Of a stretch of DNA of 40,847 nt, positions 1-40,847 are shown piece by piece. Source of the stretch: Caldilineae bacterium (GTDB lineage Bacteria; Chloroflexota; Anaerolineae; DTLA01); the NCBI GenBank assembly GCA_037446815.1, contig JBBIHX010000010.1, forward strand, positions 1-40,847, read 5' to 3'. Position numbers: made by a program. The stretch's first letter is position 1. Every line of letters begins with the position of its first letter.

Positions 1-3000
1 CTCTCCTCGTGTGTCATTGCGAGCGAAGCGAATCAATCCCACGCCCCGGAGATTGCTTCGGGCACTGCGTGCCCTCGCAATGACGGGTACCAACAGACTT
101 TGAACCGAGTCGGGAACGCACGGGGTCGGCGCCGCGTCTATACATTGGCCGGCTTGCCACACTGCATGCCACGTCCGGCCACTGACTCGGACGGAGCAAC
201 CGATGAAGGATTTGGACACAATCCGCAGGGCGGTGCTGATAGGACTGGCCCTCGCTGTGCTTGCCGGATGCACAACGCCGACGCCGTTGCCCTCGCCTGT
301 GGGAACGCCGACGGCCACGCCACCTCCGCTGCCTTCGCCCTCTGCCACTGCCACACCGCGCCCGGCGTCGGTGGACTTGGGCGTGCCCGCGGGCGACACG
401 TACAACGTCCTTGCGAGCGCGCTGGATTCTGCCCGCGGGTTGGTGTACGCGGTCGGCAACGAGGGGGATGCCCGCACGGACGCGGGTGTGGTGGCGGTCG
501 TTGACCTGGAAGCGGGCCGCGTGCAAGCATCGGCCTCGCTGCCGGTAACCGTGGACTGGACGTCCGCGGTGGCCCTGTCTGCCGATGGGGCGCGCTTGTA
601 TGTGGCCGGTCGCGATCGCGACGCGCGCGATGTCGCCGTCGTCGTTGCCACGGGGGTGGATGGACGCCCTCTCGGCGAGGTGCTGGGCACCGTCTCGGAC
701 GTGCGCGCGCTGGCGCTGGATGCGACAGGCGGGCACCTGTACGTGGCGAATGACAAGCGCCTGCGCCGTTTGAACGCGCTGTCTCTGGAGCAAGAGGCCG
801 CGACGGATGCCCCCGATGCGTTGTCGCCCATGGTGCTCCTGACCGTTAGCCCGCGCGCGGGGCGGGTATATCTGTGCGACTTCGCCGGGAATGGCATTTT
901 CGCCTATAGAGCAGACGATTTGACATTCGTCGGGATGCTGGAACCTGGAGCGCAGGTGTACGCGCTCACGGCCAGCCCGGCGGGGCCAGAGGTCTATGCC
1001 ACGGTGCAGGCGTTCACCCGCCAGCAGTCCGTTGCTCGCGTGGTGGTCATCCGAGGGGATGCTATCGTCGCCCAATGGGATATGGGCGAACCGTACTACT
1101 CGGCGCGGGTTGCCGCGTCGCCAGACGGTCGGGTGCTCGTGCTGCAAGATGGCTCCAGCGGCGACGGCATGTGGTCGCGGGTGCAAATCCGAGATGCGGA
1201 AACGGGCGCCGTGCTGAAGGCGTTTTCGCTGCCCTACGCGAACCTCACGTACTCGGCTGGGGTCGTCTATAGGGACAGGCTTGTGCGGGTGGGCGACGTC
1301 CTGTTCACCGCGGACTTGGATACGGGCGAGGTAGGCACGCCGCTGCACCTGGGCGTGGGCGTGGTGCAGATGGCGCTGGATGCGGATGCCGATTCCCTGC
1401 ACGTCCTGGATTCCACAGGCGTGTTGCACGCCATAGATTTGGCGACGATGGCTCGGGTGCGTTCGCGGCCCATCGTGGACACGGGGTTGGAGTCCCTGTC
1501 CGATGGCCCGATGACGGCGCATGGAGGTCGCCTGTACGTCGCGGACGTTCGGGGGAATCGCACGTTGGTCTTGGACGCGGCCACGGGCGAGAAGGTGGGA
1601 GAGATTCCGAAAGCGGGCCAGGTGAGCGTGGACGAGGCACGCAAGCGGCTGTTTGTAACGCGTCAGGGGGTCTTCATTGCCGACGCGGCGAGTTATCAGA
1701 TTGTCGGCTCGGTGGAAGGCACCGTGCGCGAGGAGCAGCAACTCTACTCGCCAGGCGCAGTGGAGGCGACATACGACCCGACGACGGACCGCCTGTATGT
1801 GATTATGACCAACAACGCCGCCGGCTCGGGGGCGCGCACGTGGCTGGACATCTACGACGCGAAGACGCTGGCGCGGTTGGAGACGCCCATTCAGAGCGAC
1901 CAGCGATTCGTGGATGGACTGGCGTTGGACGGGGGCGCGGGGAGCGTGTGGGTTGCGGCCAACTATCCGCGGGCGGTGCTTTCCGCGTGGTCGCCCGACG
2001 GCCGATTGCTGGTGCGACTCGCGGGCTTGGGCGGGAGGCTGTTTCTGGACGCGGGGCGCGGGCGGCTGTACGCGCGTGCGTGGGGCGGGCTGGCCGCTGT
2101 GGACACGGCGACCGGCGACGTGGTGGGATTCCGCCCGCTCTCGGTGCGGTTTCCGGATGTCGCGGTGTTTGACGAGGGCAGGGGGTGCTTCTACGTCGCG
2201 GAACGCAACAGCGCGACGGTGCAGGTGGTGCCGCCGGGGCCGTCGCCTGTGGCCGCGCAGTCCCCGACGGCGCTGCCGCCTCGGCCCGTGCGCGACTTGG
2301 CCGTCGGCGGCGGGGCTGCTATGTTGGCGGCTATCGGCGAAGCGGAGGCCGCGGCGGTGTACCGAAGGGAGGATGGCGGTTGGGTTCCGGTGCGGGGGTA
2401 CTTTGCGGATGGGACGCCGGCCCGCGTGATGGCTGCGCCTGGGACGCGGCCCGTCTTCTTCGCTTTCTCCGCCGAGGGCAGTTACAGCCCCTCGGCTCTG
2501 TTGCGCTCCACCGACGGCGGGCGGAGTTGGCAGGTGTCCTCGCGCGGCCTCACCGACTTCTACATCCGCGACGCGGCCTTCTCGCCCGATTTTGCCACGG
2601 ACGGCACTGCGGTTGTCCTGGCGGGAGAGAGCGGTCTGTTCCGGACGACGGACGGCGGGGAAACCTGGGCGCATGCTGCCGACATTGCCGGCGTGCGCGT
2701 CGCCGCATCGGCGGGGCCGTGTTTTGTGGTGCTGTCGGCCAATGCGCAGTACAGCAGCACGGACGTGTACGTTGCTTGCGGGCGGGACGGCGCGCTACAG
2801 GCGGTGGGCGCGATTCCCGTACCGCCCTACTTCGTGAAGGCGTTGGCCCTGTCGCCCGAATTCTCCACGGATGGGGTAGCACTGGCGGCAGCAGAGAACG
2901 GTGGCATGTTCCGATCGCAAGATGGCGGGCGAACGTGGGAGTCGGTGGGGCCGCCCCTGGCGTCGCTCGTATCCGGCTTCACATTTGTCTTCGCGCCAGA

Positions 3001-39000: not shown

Positions 39001-40847
39001 GTGGATGTGGTGAACGATGACACGGACACCGGCCCGCTGTGCTTCGGCACTTTTGCCAGCCGCGTTACCTTCGTAGCCGGCAACGCCACGAAAGAGGCGG
39101 CCCGAGAGGCGAAGCAGATTCTGTTCAGCGTGGCTGCGGACAAACTGGAAGCGTCGCCGGATGACCTGGAAGCGGCGAATGGCAAGATTTACGTGAAGGG
39201 CGCGCCCGAGCGTTCGGTGGACATCGGAGCGATTGCCGGCGAAGCCACGTTTGGCCTGCGCAAGGTCATCGTGGGCCGCGGGCACTACATGCGCACGCCT
39301 TCGGCTCCCGACCCGGCCACCGGCAAGACGGACCCGTTCGCCACGCTGGCGTGGGCAGCCGTGCAGGCCGAGGTGGAGGTTGACACGGATACCGGCGAGG
39401 TTACGGTGCTTCGCCTGGACTGCGCCTACGACGTGGGCCGGGCAGTGAACCCACTGCTGCTGGAGGGGCAGATTGAAGGCGGCGCGGGCATGGGCGTGGG
39501 GGCGGCTCTGATGGAGCAACTGTACCCCTACAAGTCGCCCGTCAAGTTCCCGGCCGAGACCTTCGGCGACTACGTGATCCCCACTGCGGTGGACGTTCCG
39601 GATATCCGCACGGTCATCTACGAATGCCCGTCCACCAATGGGCCTTTCGGCGCGAAGGGCATCGGCGAGATGACGGCGAACGCGCCGAGCCCGGCGATCG
39701 TGGCTGCGATCCACGATGCTATCGGCGTCTGGATTGACGAACTGCCGATAACGCCGGAGAAGGTGCTGCGCGCCCTGCAGGCGAAGGGCTAGACCACGAC
39801 AGGCCATCGGGGGTCTGACGCGTGTTGGGCCCCCGATGGGACAAAGCCCGGAAGTTGCTTCAACCAAGGGCGGCGTATAACGGGCAACTTTTCCAACGTT
39901 AGAAACTTTTCCATCGGTTCGGTGTTACGGAGAGTAGACAGAAACCACAGGGTTCGGGTGCGCGGTGGCCAAAGGGAGAGGCGGCTGTGCAGGCGGTGAA
40001 AGCCACGGGGCCAAGTCGCTCGGGTGATCCAAATCGTTCGGTATCCGACTGATTGAAACTGTGAGGAGGGAAAACAGATGGGTCCGATTATCCTGCTTCT
40101 GGCGGCGTTCATTTTCATAGTGGACGCGGCGTTCCTGTTCGGTAAGGCTGACCCGAAGGGCACCGGCGTTGCGAACGTGGCTGTAGGCGTCATCATGAAC
40201 GCCTGCGGGCTTCAACTCGGGTTCACGGCCGGTGGCAACTCGTTCCTCATGATCCTGTGCGGCCTGACCATGGCCTTCAGCCTGTTCTACATCATCCTGG
40301 GGTGGTGCTTGCTGGCTGGCTACGATCTGAAGGCGCTGGGATGGGCCTGCCTGGGCGCGGCGCTGTTCACGCTCCTGTCGGCGGTCTTCTTCTTCGGCCT
40401 GGGCACCACGGGGAACACGATTCTGGGTGTCTTCGCGTTGACCTGGGCCACGCTGTTCGCGACGGCTTGGCTGAACCTGTCGTTCGGGACCAAGTGGGCG
40501 GGCGTGCTGGTCAAGTGGATTCTGGTGGTGGACTCGCTGATTACGCTCATGATCCCCGCCTACCTTCTCATCACGGGTGGCTGGCCCGCCTAGTTGTAGG
40601 GCGCTTTGCAGGAGCACGAAGCGGCCTCTCCCGGGTTGTTGTGAGTGCTCGGCACCCAATTGCAGCGGGGCTTGTCGGATGGTAACGGCAAGCCCCGCTG
40701 GACCTGGTTGCACCGCGTGCTGGTGAACTGCACCTACACTCTCATCGTGCGTCGTTGTGGGCGCAGCGAAGCAAGGTCGCCCGACCTCGTCCCTACAGTG
40801 CCCCGCTCCGCTCGCGGAGGAGGGGGATGCTGAAGACCAGGGGTGAG

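Follow-up and report, generated by a model that had tools for sequence, protein, structure and literature searches.

As the GC content of bacterial genomes rises, TAA generally drops and TGA climbs, and TAG, whose behaviour is discussed as the 'TAG paradox', has been called 'universally suboptimal' in bacteria (Povolotskaya et al., 2012, PMC3549826; Ho and Hurst, 2022, PMC9348620). The genome considered here, that of a Caldilineae bacterium (GCA_037446815.1, labelled G000), both resembles and departs from that pattern: TAG in the ribosomal-protein operons of its phylum, Chloroflexota, is likewise unresponsive to GC, but on a plateau of about 42% against about 20% generally, and in its genus TAG ends the majority of genes genome-wide, with well-adapted genes preferring it, contrary to the view of TAG as universally suboptimal.

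Highly expressed genes shun UGA in 14 of the 14 species treated by Wei, Wang and Xia (2016, PMC4989110); in 3 of the species, Mycobacterium tuberculosis among them, such genes prefer UAG. As far as that account of M. tuberculosis goes, G000 is likewise GC-rich, with TAG going up and TGA down toward high expression (for which codon score stands proxy in G000), and differs in having TAG as its overall majority stop as well, and no enrichment of TAA among the best-adapted genes. GC-rich Actinomycetota have TGA-dominated stops and have lost the prfB frameshift (mBio 2025, PMC12421855). There too high GC erodes TAA and leaves a choice between TGA and TAG; the outcome is nevertheless opposite, the Anaerolineae lineage retaining the CTT TGA C site and leaning on TAG. 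In Table S1 of the same paper, the Chloroflexota rows for Bellilinea, Ardenticatena, Litorilinea and Thermoflexus read 'frameshift TGA'. Finally, TAG exceeds TGA at gene ends in Flavobacterium johnsoniae, where TGA accounts for 7% (PMC12421855), and in low-GC Firmicutes, as it does in G000; those organisms, so far as the source portrays them, are AT-rich and TAA-dominated, whereas the TAG majority of G000 occurs at 65.6% GC. As a stop-codon bias the present case belongs to a known kind, in an unusual form, and we lean, if only slightly, towards understanding it as a bias of stop choice under the standard code, created by GC pressure together with weak selection for UAG over UGA.

Gene ends in the genome and in the window

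The G000 assembly is a draft MAG of 265 contigs (completeness 93.6%, contamination 2.9%). With a gene finder built independently of the one behind the earlier note (iterative codon log-odds scores, greedy non-overlapping picks), 318 of 2,657 genes end in TAA, 1,398 in TAG and 941 in TGA (12.0, 52.6 and 35.4%), which bears out the claim of that note, made at 12.0, 53.4 and 34.6% of 2,393 genes, that TAG is the main stop. The majority is seen in every gene-length class, widens to 1,202 TAG against 611 TGA among the 2,092 genes whose ends do not overlap another gene, and reaches 61.8% (309/500) at convergent gene ends, previously put at 60.6%. The same finder applied to two other Anaerolineae, G016 and G038, returned ordinary usage with TGA leading, and therefore does not manufacture TAG: most genes of this bacterium really do end in TAG instead of the usual TGA.

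The window, that is the whole stretch of DNA analysed (contig C10, JBBIHX010000010.1, 40,847 nt), holds 32 called genes, all on the + strand, with 26 TAG, 6 TGA and no TAA. They are listed here from codon-score gene calls and NCBIfam profile matches.

371..3793, +, 1140-aa protein with weak beta-propeller/glycosylhydrolase matches, stop TAG
4432..5064, +, methenyl-THF cyclohydrolase FchA, stop TAG at profile end (207/207)
5076..5951, +, FolD, stop TAG
6024..7898, +, formate-THF ligase, stop TAG, profile end 557/557
8071..8451, +, small metal-binding (MerP/CopZ-like) protein, stop TAG
8480..10423, +, anaerobic CO dehydrogenase catalytic subunit, stop TAG
10457..12742, +, acetyl-CoA synthase (ACS) alpha/beta subunit, stop TAG, profile end 704/705
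12815..13342, +, CBS-domain protein, stop TAG
13348..14316, +, ACS complex delta subunit, stop TAG
14334..14549, +, 71-aa ORF, no family match, stop TAG
14580..15929, +, ACS complex gamma (corrinoid) subunit, stop TAG, profile end 448/450
15994..17949, +, corrinoid activation protein AcsV, stop TGA
18051..18971, +, methyl-THF:corrinoid methyltransferase, stop TAG
19141..19344, +, doubtful 67-aa ORF (score 7.4), no family, stop TGA
19830..20789, +, 3-hydroxyacyl-CoA dehydrogenase, stop TGA
20801..21679, +, 3-keto-5-aminohexanoate cleavage enzyme-like, stop TAG
22075..23769, +, dihydroxy-acid dehydratase, stop TGA
23823..24902, +, metal-dependent hydrolase (lactonase-like), stop TAG
24994..27264, +, PAS sensor histidine kinase, stop TGA, overlaps next gene
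27233..28057, +, response regulator, stop TAG
28293..28847, +, 4Fe-4S ferredoxin-like protein, stop TAG
28853..30808, +, aldehyde ferredoxin oxidoreductase, stop TGA
30822..31112, +, MoaD/SAMP-like small protein, stop TAG
31172..32464, +, LarA-family racemase, stop TAG
32537..33400, +, 287-aa protein, no family match, stop TAG
33464..34324, +, 2-hydroxy-3-oxopropionate reductase-like, stop TAG
34329..35981, +, IlvD/Edd-family dehydratase, stop TAG
36134..36997, +, molybdenum hydroxylase FAD subunit, stop TAG
37013..37477, +, molybdenum hydroxylase 2Fe-2S subunit, stop TAG
37520..38797, +, molybdenum hydroxylase large subunit, N-terminal part (profile 8-415 of 763), stop TAG
38848..39792, +, molybdenum hydroxylase large subunit, C-terminal part, other frame (profile 446-746 of 746), stop TAG
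40078..40593, +, 171-aa protein, no family match, stop TAG

Restricted to calls with an NCBIfam match at E<=1e-5, the count of 23 TAG in 28 genes proposed before is recovered (23 TAG, 5 TGA), and the family profiles finish at the gene's TAG or TGA. In TAG share the window tops the 81 contigs that carry at least 10 genes each (binomial p = 7e-4 against the genome mean). It is extreme, but with heterogeneity among contigs at p = 0.035 it has therefore to be seen as the tail of a genome-wide property, not as a special locus.

Stop choice follows codon adaptation

Among genes with non-overlapping ends, the TAG share goes through 46, 58, 55, 62 and 66% from the lowest to the highest fifth of codon score (point-biserial p = 2.6e-8) as that of TGA goes through 38, 29, 33, 25 and 21%, in the manner of an expression-linked UAG preference, with codon score as the proxy. 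The top fifth stands at 60.9% TAG and 26.5% TGA over all genes of at least 300 nt, and at 66.1 and 20.8% once overlapping ends are removed, on either side of the 64.3 and 23.9% from which TAG had been described as strongest in the best-adapted genes. This gradient is not a clean measure of expression, because the score correlates with GC3 (rho 0.62). The ribosomal-protein operon, a proxy independent of codon score, has 23 TAG, 5 TGA and 5 TAA in its 33 genes. The window, with its Wood-Ljungdahl genes, serves as a further proxy, at 26 TAG in 32.

Highly expressed genes usually choose TAA. Here the TAA share is flat to lower in the best-adapted genes, passing from 16 to 13% across the fifths, and this absence of enrichment is not obviously predicted by ordinary translational selection. 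TAG also exceeds TGA (46:38) even in the least adapted fifth, and the neutral baseline could itself have shifted.

At overlapping co-directional gene ends TGA is used in 244 of 284 cases, and the base before TGA stops is A in 312 (ATGA) and G in 275 (GTGA). A GTGAC context had been singled out earlier; that 5-mer accounts for just 5 of the 941 TGA stops, and what matters is the start/stop overlap. TGA would persist mainly where ATGA and GTGA start-stop overlaps force it structurally.

These figures bear on a relaxation of constraint, in which the usual selection against TAG would be lost and TAG and TGA would drift to a mutational 1:1 without any preference for TAG. From the G share at Lys/Glu/Gln codons, 0.72-0.82, a neutral A/G balance leads one to expect 11-14% TAA and about 44% each of TAG and TGA; the 12-13% of TAA in G000 agrees with this model at a two-fold-site G share of about 0.8, and the least adapted fifth is near parity, all the more when overlaps are counted (42.6% TAG, 43.2% TGA). 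Parity is nevertheless not what the rest of the genome displays, at 2:1 in non-overlapping genes, 3.2:1 in their top fifth and 23:5 in the ribosomal-protein operon; moreover, since TAG in non-coding DNA has half the frequency of TGA, even equal numbers at stops would mean that TAG is enriched there. We consider relaxation unlikely, and selection for UAG over UGA the better reading.

An excess restricted to the stop position

The enrichment is found at the termination position and nowhere else. Off-frame triplets within genes number 28,701 TGA and 4,594 TAG, the 60-nt 3' flanks 1,454 and 647, and intergenic 3-mers on both strands 10,326 and 5,108, the same direction as in the off-frame (21,643:3,293) and flank (1,054:453) counts from which this confinement was first claimed. 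The idea that TAG is commoner simply as a sequence, through context-dependent mutation, a k-mer bias or gene conversion that is biased, has all these places against it, since TGA is ahead in each. In its favour, among the sampled Anaerolineae, the k-mer ratio of TAG to TGA loosely follows the ratio at stops (0.81 and 1.76 in G008, 0.26 and 0.33 in G016). In G000, however, a k-mer ratio of 0.39 overall and 0.49 between genes, ordinary for the class as had been stated before (ranges 0.26-0.81 and 0.25-0.93), faces a stop ratio of 1.49, and the TAG share shows no trend along the fifths of gene GC (51, 58, 55, 51, 46%). This improbable explanation is largely refuted.

Termination machinery and the genetic code

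Both release factors are present, RF2 under frameshift regulation, as already reported. RF1 (G000:C89:5033-6130) has the PVT tripeptide and GGQ; RF2 (G000:C9:39749-40705) has SPF, GGQ and the shift site CTT TGA C with GGAG ahead of it. The RF1 PxT motif was read in 15 of 17 Anaerolineae loci, a spurious ORF having been picked in the other two, and SPF with GGQ in 28 of 30 RF2 loci, where the script missed two and the shift-site window failed for some. PrmC and an ArfB-like gene are also encoded. Aragorn found no stop-anticodon tRNA in G000 other than tRNA-Sec, hence no suppressor and no CUA anticodon; the sole UCA anticodon belongs to this well-formed tRNA-Sec (C109:2765-2863), and the D stem is ordinary in the one good tRNA-Trp. 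Beyond the stops there is no coding signal, the in-frame codon score being -0.288 after TGA and -0.287 after TAG against +0.407 in gene bodies, and all three stops end genes where homologues end, as seen from the window profiles (at TAG or TGA) and from the operon orthologues. Reassignment of TGA (codes 4 and 25) was discarded on the retained RF2, the restriction of UCA to tRNA-Sec and the lack of coding signal after TGA, and pyrrolysine decoding of TAG on the missing CUA-anticodon tRNA and on the failure to find PylS in this 93.6% complete genome, where the best PylS_Cterm match reaches 20.7 bits for a cut-off of 178. G000 uses the standard code, with TAG read by RF1 and TGA by an autoregulated RF2.

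An incipient recoding or heavy read-through of TGA, whether through weakness of RF2, a suppressor tRNA or competition from selenocysteine, might still push genes off this codon: tRNA-Sec and SelB are encoded, RF3 was not found in G000, and TGA is most depleted in well-adapted genes. Yet RF2 is intact and autoregulated via a TGA, the tRNA set and the silence after TGA just described speak against decoding, and 941 genes still end in TGA. SelB occurs in 36 of 41 Anaerolineae regardless of stop usage. We hold read-through to be very unlikely. That ad hoc gene calling, in both analyses, or the draft, fragmented state of the MAG should create the TAG excess is barely credible, when the two independent callers agree to within 1%, TAG stands at the profile ends of 23 among the 28 window genes with family support, BLAST-defined ribosomal-protein orthologues give a like picture, and the same caller finds other genomes TGA-led, with all length classes concordant.

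From one genus to the phylum

The four congeners G001-G004 (about 223 kb, 161 genes: 19 TAA, 76 TAG, 66 TGA) share the trait when pooled, as had been proposed, though not in every case singly (21 TAG to 22 TGA in G001, 20 to 22 in G003). The companion claim, that other Anaerolineae lack it, does not hold. TAG is the leading stop in three further families of the class, in samples of 67-119 kb (G031, 52/95 at 64.5% GC; G008, 37/77; G020, 30/67), and in ribosomal-protein operons it leads or co-leads in many Anaerolineae and in Chloroflexota of other classes. The ten genomes sampled earlier may have missed the TAG-rich lineages because most other Anaerolineae are ordinary in their ordinary genes (TAG 6/32 in G016, 5/32 in G038, 23/85 in G022).

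Orthologues of the 33 operon genes, defined by BLAST and admitted only where the alignment reached both C-termini, extend the comparison to the phylum. As TAA/TAG/TGA, the counts are 295/401/280 (n=976) in other Anaerolineae, 149/222/157 (n=528) in 20 families of other Chloroflexota classes and 90/109/55 (n=254) in 12 further Chloroflexota loci, against 967/266/191 in 68 loci of other phyla, where TAA thus takes 967 of 1,424. The mean TAG share is 42% in 60 Chloroflexota genomes, where it shows no relation to GC (rho -0.01), and 19% in 59 genomes of other phyla. In non-operon genes adjoining the compared operons TAG is found in only 37/164 and 31/101, and it is therefore in the highly expressed set that TAG is enriched. 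The asymmetry between orthologues noted before is reproduced, with G000 TAG facing a TGA in the relative 18 times against 1 for the reverse in the window, and 175 against 37 in the ribosomal-protein operon, among pairs that are not independent. The TAG habit is the extreme of a phylum-wide preference in highly expressed genes, not the quirk of one genus.

How a TAG majority may arise

We may thus picture the TAG majority under the standard code as the work of two forces. GC pressure takes away TAA, as the fit of the remaining 12-13% to the A/G mutation balance shows; weak selection at the termination step would favour UAG over UGA, and we infer this second force because the excess is stop-only, grows with codon adaptation, is absent from non-coding DNA and peaks in ribosomal-protein and Wood-Ljungdahl genes. 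The preference for UAG over UGA in highly expressed genes is phylum-wide in Chloroflexota, and high GC, in removing TAA, would expose it genome-wide in G000; it reaches ordinary genes in this genus and in no fewer than three further families of Anaerolineae (G031, G008, G020). More tentatively, and with doubt outweighing confidence, we suggest that Chloroflexota as a whole may terminate translation in such a way that UAG outdoes UGA as a GC-containing stop, the TAG plateau of their core highly expressed genes being about twice that of other bacteria, and that the preference may have spread genome-wide in a few GC-rich Anaerolineae lineages, this genus included.

The molecular reason could be an RF1 more available or effective than RF2, or a leakier UGA. 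By codon score, prfA lies at the 93rd percentile in G000 and prfB at the 61st; on this adaptation proxy, prfA is above prfB in 6 of 14 genomes and below it in the congeners G003 and G004, and over the 14 genomes the difference has no significant link with TAG preference (rho 0.30, p 0.29). The RF2 motifs and frameshift site do not separate the two groups either, being conserved in TAG-rich and TGA-rich Anaerolineae alike, and genus-specific changes at otherwise conserved RF2 columns are two only, both in the C-terminal helix. Nor do SelB (36 of 41 genomes), PrmC (39 of 41) and RF3 (above cut-off in 1 of 41) split TAG-rich from TGA-rich members. Judging by work in E. coli, a lack of RF3 would be expected to handicap RF1 rather than RF2, which speaks against an RF1 advantage.

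Consequences

TAG and TGA provide a rare comparison of 'synonymous' signals with identical base content, and the steady 20% or so of TAG in bacteria, at whatever GC, is an acknowledged open problem. A GC-rich lineage whose majority stop is TAG, the more so in its best-adapted genes, shows that the handicap normally carried by TAG is not universal, and so does a phylum with about 42% TAG in its ribosomal-protein operons. Where low TGA or high TAG is taken by gene callers and recoding screens to signal an alternative code, such genomes ought to pass unflagged. If true, the UAG regime of Chloroflexota would be a natural counter-example to the view that TAG is universally suboptimal in bacteria, and the presence in one class of TAG-avoiding members (G016, G006) and TAG-rich genera would make the TAG paradox experimentally testable, these contrasting organisms being suited to tests of RF1/RF2 balance, read-through and context effects.

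Stop codon usage in the genome

The draft genome of this Caldilineae bacterium (3.19 Mb in 265 contigs, 65.6% GC, completeness 93.6%, contamination 2.9%) was called anew with a gene finder of our own, in which stop-to-stop ORFs are scored with codon log-odds from iterative training on long ORFs, each is given its best start, and a non-overlapping set is then picked greedily. The resulting 2,657 genes, which are calls and not a curated annotation, account for 86% of the genome and end in TAA, TAG and TGA 318, 1,398 and 941 times (12.0/52.6/35.4%), TAG taking 52-57% of every gene-length class. 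These shares differ by less than one point from those on which an earlier note had named TAG the main stop codon. When overlapping ends are left out, the 2,092 free ends of genes of at least 300 nt comprise 279 TAA, 1,202 TAG and 611 TGA, and TAG closes 309 of 500 convergent genes. TGA is concentrated at sites where overlap forces its use: it is found at 244 of 284 overlapping co-directional ends, and the base before it is A in 312 cases (ATGA) and G in 275 (GTGA). T comes after TAG in only 8% of genes, against 19% after TGA and 20% after TAA; the base next to TAG is C or G in 79%.

Nothing comparable is seen away from the termination position. TGA outnumbers TAG among all 3-mers of the genome (71,653 against 27,642), off-frame within genes (28,701 against 4,594), in intergenic DNA (10,326 against 5,108) and in the 60-nt 3′ flanks (1,454 against 647). 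The TAG/TGA k-mer ratio, 0.39 overall and 0.49 in intergenic DNA, falls inside the ranges spanned by 12 sampled relatives (0.26-0.81 and 0.25-0.93), whereas the ratio at stops, 1.49, is among the highest in the same comparison. In-frame back-up stops within the ten codons downstream showed no clear difference (203 of 11,910 after TAG, 120 of 6,030 after TGA). That TAG might be a piece of a downstream Shine-Dalgarno sequence (TAGGAGG) was rejected, the bases following TAG being G in 41% and then A in 16%, and convergent ends being as rich in TAG as operon-internal ones.

The bias is stronger in well-adapted genes. Among free ends, TAG rises from 46 to 66% and TGA falls from 38 to 21% between the lowest and the highest fifth of per-codon score (p = 2.6e-8), TAA being constant at 13-16%. 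Because codon score is correlated with GC3 (rho 0.62), it is not a pure proxy of expression, and the S10-spc-alpha ribosomal-protein operon (contig C50) was used as a functional definition of high expression; its 33 genes end 23 times in TAG, five times in TGA and five times in TAA. The restriction of the excess to the termination codon, the ordinary k-mer ratio and the link with codon adaptation, all put forward in the earlier note, are thus borne out.

The window

In the window, TAG ends 26 and TGA six of 32 called genes, all on the + strand, and TAA ends none; the 28 that match an NCBIfam profile at E<=1e-5 end 23 times in TAG and five times in TGA. Several of these profiles end where TAG does (FchA at 207/207, formate-THF ligase at 557/557, acetyl-CoA synthase at 704/705, the gamma subunit at 448/450). 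The window, which is contig C10, has the highest TAG share among the 81 contigs with at least ten genes (binomial p = 7e-4 against the genome mean), heterogeneity among contigs being modest (p = 0.035); it marks the extreme of a trait that runs through the whole genome. Two features deserve mention, the first of them being followed by assorted oxidoreductases:

4432-18971, + strand: complete-looking Wood-Ljungdahl / CODH-ACS cluster (FchA, FolD, formate-THF ligase (Fhs), CO dehydrogenase, acetyl-CoA synthase, delta and gamma subunits, AcsV, methyltransferase)
37520-39792, + strand: molybdenum hydroxylase large subunit (xanthine dehydrogenase family), by profile matches, in two ORFs of different frames with 50 bases between them

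TAG ends 12 of the 13 called genes of the Wood-Ljungdahl cluster, AcsV alone having TGA. The orthologue of its acetyl-CoA synthase (10457-12742) lies within an open frame of 1,236-1,775 aa in six relatives (loci L026, L028 and L030-L033), where the match to the 761-aa query is partial or interrupted by kilobase-sized insertions, an arrangement that may reflect inteins. As for the molybdenum hydroxylase, the first ORF covers positions 8-415 of 763 of the pucD profile and the second 446-746 of 746 of the 4-hydroxybenzoyl-CoA reductase alpha model; the gene may be naturally split, or a frameshift or a fault in the assembly may lie behind the break.

Genetic code and termination machinery

Both release factors noted earlier, RF1 and a frameshift-regulated RF2, are present with their motifs, together with two further genes:

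C89:5033-6130: prfA (RF1), with PVT and GGQ
C89:4171-5043: prmC, adjoining prfA
C9:39749-40705: prfB (RF2), with SPF and GGQ; a CTT TGA C site lies upstream, just after GGAG
C166:2676-3113: ArfB-like gene

All four end in TAA, used by 12% of genes, which would happen by chance at about 2e-4 if they were independent; RF2 genes elsewhere in the class (28 loci) end in TAG 13, TAA eight and TGA seven times.

The code is standard. Where 90 or more bases downstream of a gene are free (756 genes), codons read in frame past the stop score -0.288 if it is TGA and -0.287 if it is TAG, against an average of +0.407 in gene bodies, and read-through of either codon as sense is undetectable. A screen for coding continuation past stops was discarded, its matches being neighbouring genes in the same frame. 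Aragorn reports one well-formed tRNA-Sec(UCA) and one ordinary tRNA-Trp(CCA), with no tRNA of CUA or UUA anticodon in the draft, and PylS was not found, the best match (20.7 bits) lying below the cut-off of 178. A second tRNA-Trp that would act as UGA suppressor was rejected, the call on C109 (101 nt, mispaired stems) being taken as false; the genuine tRNA-Trp (C118:349-424) carries a C-G pair at the site where the Hirsh suppressor differs. Aragorn also places a tmRNA at C96:2552-2939, the tag peptide of which (GNQDHRLAP) is without the usual hydrophobic C-terminal end, the tag frame being possibly mis-set.

Distribution in the genus, the class and the phylum

The four congeners (about 223 kb) share the habit, with TAA 19, TAG 76 and TGA 66 in 161 genes, not significantly different from the genome under study (p = 0.21); G002 and G004 have more TAG than TGA, G001 and G003 about as much of one as of the other, and ribosomal-protein operons of the congeners have 58-76% TAG. 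Among 19 other families of Anaerolineae, sampled with our gene finder in self-trained form, three use TAG more than either other stop (TAA/TAG/TGA):

G031: 9/52/34 of 95 genes, GC 64.5%
G008: 19/37/21 of 77 genes, GC 56%
G020: 11/30/26 of 67 genes, GC 65%

G009 is at parity (TAG 28, TGA 29), and usage of TAG is ordinary in G022 (23 of 85), G030 (24 of 80), G039 (22 of 86), G016 (6 of 32) and G038 (5 of 32), samples of 10-33 genes being imprecise. The pooled 271 TAG of 821 leans upward and is no class mean, the samples of seven genomes having been enlarged after the first counts were seen.

Regions around rplB were compared for 39 Anaerolineae and for 20 families from the remaining classes of Chloroflexota. 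For each of the 33 operon genes the stop was read from the top BLASTP orthologue, provided that the alignment came within 15 residues of the C-terminus of the query and 25 of that of the subject. The outgroup was drawn from the 80 loci that best matched an L2 alignment of Chloroflexota; Firmicutes dominate it, and it does not represent bacteria fairly.

Stop codons of ribosomal-protein operon genes (TAA, TAG, TGA; n; TAG share)
Other Anaerolineae: 295, 401, 280; 976; 41%
Other Chloroflexota classes: 149, 222, 157; 528; 42%
12 Chloroflexota loci from the L2-alignment scan: 90, 109, 55; 254; 43%
68 loci of other phyla from the same scan: 967, 266, 191; 1,424; 19%

Per genome, once the four congeners, any genome in which under 15 genes were scored, and L205 (a duplicate of G046) are set aside, the mean TAG share is 41.6% in 60 Chloroflexota, unrelated to GC (rho -0.01); in these genomes TAA goes down (rho -0.49) and TGA up (rho 0.57) with GC. 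The mean is 18.9% in 59 genomes of other phyla (Mann-Whitney p = 4e-10, kin genomes not being independent), and TAG reaches at least 45% in 30 of the 60 operons against 8 of the 59. Operons rich in TAG do exist in the outgroup: in one member each of Symbiobacterium (10 of 19), Armatimonadota (11 of 18) and Nitrospiraceae (11 of 21), in one deltaproteobacterium (15 of 25) and in several Clostridia. The non-operon genes beside the Chloroflexota operons are led by TGA: TAG ends 37 of 164 of them in other Anaerolineae and only 31 of 101 in the other classes. The enrichment of TAG across the phylum is thus one of highly expressed genes and not of genes in general. In a FastTree tree of 54 taxa (4,605 concatenated ribosomal-protein columns, six taxa with less than half of the columns left out), the genus is a single long branch within Anaerolineae and TAG-rich operons are scattered, low TAG being restricted to the clade of G016 and G006 (2 and 3 of 31) plus G014, G015, G026 and G024.

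The earlier note, which took the trait to be shared by the congeners and missing from ten other Anaerolineae, was therefore right as to the TAG majority and the congeners; its genus-specific reading gives way to a preference that is phylum-wide.

Candidate molecular causes

An advantage of RF1 over RF2 would fit the codon scores of the two genes here (prfA in the 93rd percentile, prfB in the 61st). We still treat it as a hypothesis because the CAI of prfA versus prfB, taken against the operon of each genome, does not track TAG preference in 14 genomes (rho 0.30, p 0.29; G025, G030 and G020, where RF1 could not be read by pattern, left out), and two congeners go in the opposite direction. Near the GGQ loop, RF1 of Anaerolineae (loci L001 and L285-L300) comes in two types, GGQSVNTTDS (this genus, G025, G026) and GGQHMQKN, the latter resembling the RF2 consensus of the class.

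A defective RF2 gave no lead: the site that we take as equivalent to E. coli position 246 is Ser, and only two otherwise conserved columns have genus-specific changes, in the C-terminal helix (D to T, F to L), RF1 having two conservative ones (D to E, L to I). Anaerolineae keep SPF, GGQ and the frameshift motif in RF2 whether they are TAG-rich or TGA-rich. RF3 (prfC, TIGR00503) exceeds its cut-off of 467 in only one of 41 Anaerolineae genomes (G027), the remaining matches being EF-G-like and below 215 bits; this lack, being class-wide, cannot explain differences within the class. Selenocysteine load does not discriminate, SelB being above cut-off in 36 of the 41 at any stop usage, and loss of PrmC was rejected, as it is present in 39 of 41 and adjoins prfA here.

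A preference for UAG and the TAG paradox

The G share at Lys, Glu and Gln codons, 0.72-0.82, predicts from a simple A/G balance 11-14% TAA, with TAG and TGA equal at about 44%. TAA is at the predicted level; TAG is above expectation and TGA below it, a departure confined to stops and larger where genes are well adapted. Most likely, weak selection at the termination step favours UAG over UGA, and high GC, by removing TAA from play, lets that preference dominate the genome.

The pattern agrees with one study, where highly expressed genes avoid UGA in 14 of 14 species and prefer UAG in three (PMC4989110). For this lineage it contradicts another, which concluded that TAG, at about 20%, is universally suboptimal (PMC3549826). 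Searches of the general stop-codon literature brought up no GC-rich bacterium with a TAG majority, a result that covers those searches only; a tabulated case may exist, the rarity of more than 50% TAG being judged from published text and not from per-genome tables. A full-text search directed at Chloroflexota found no paper on this trait.

The TAG majority is an unusual form of a known kind of bias, a phylum-wide preference for UAG that peaks in a few GC-rich Anaerolineae. It bears on the flat-TAG pattern described as the TAG paradox (PMC9348620), a pattern against which this lineage runs.
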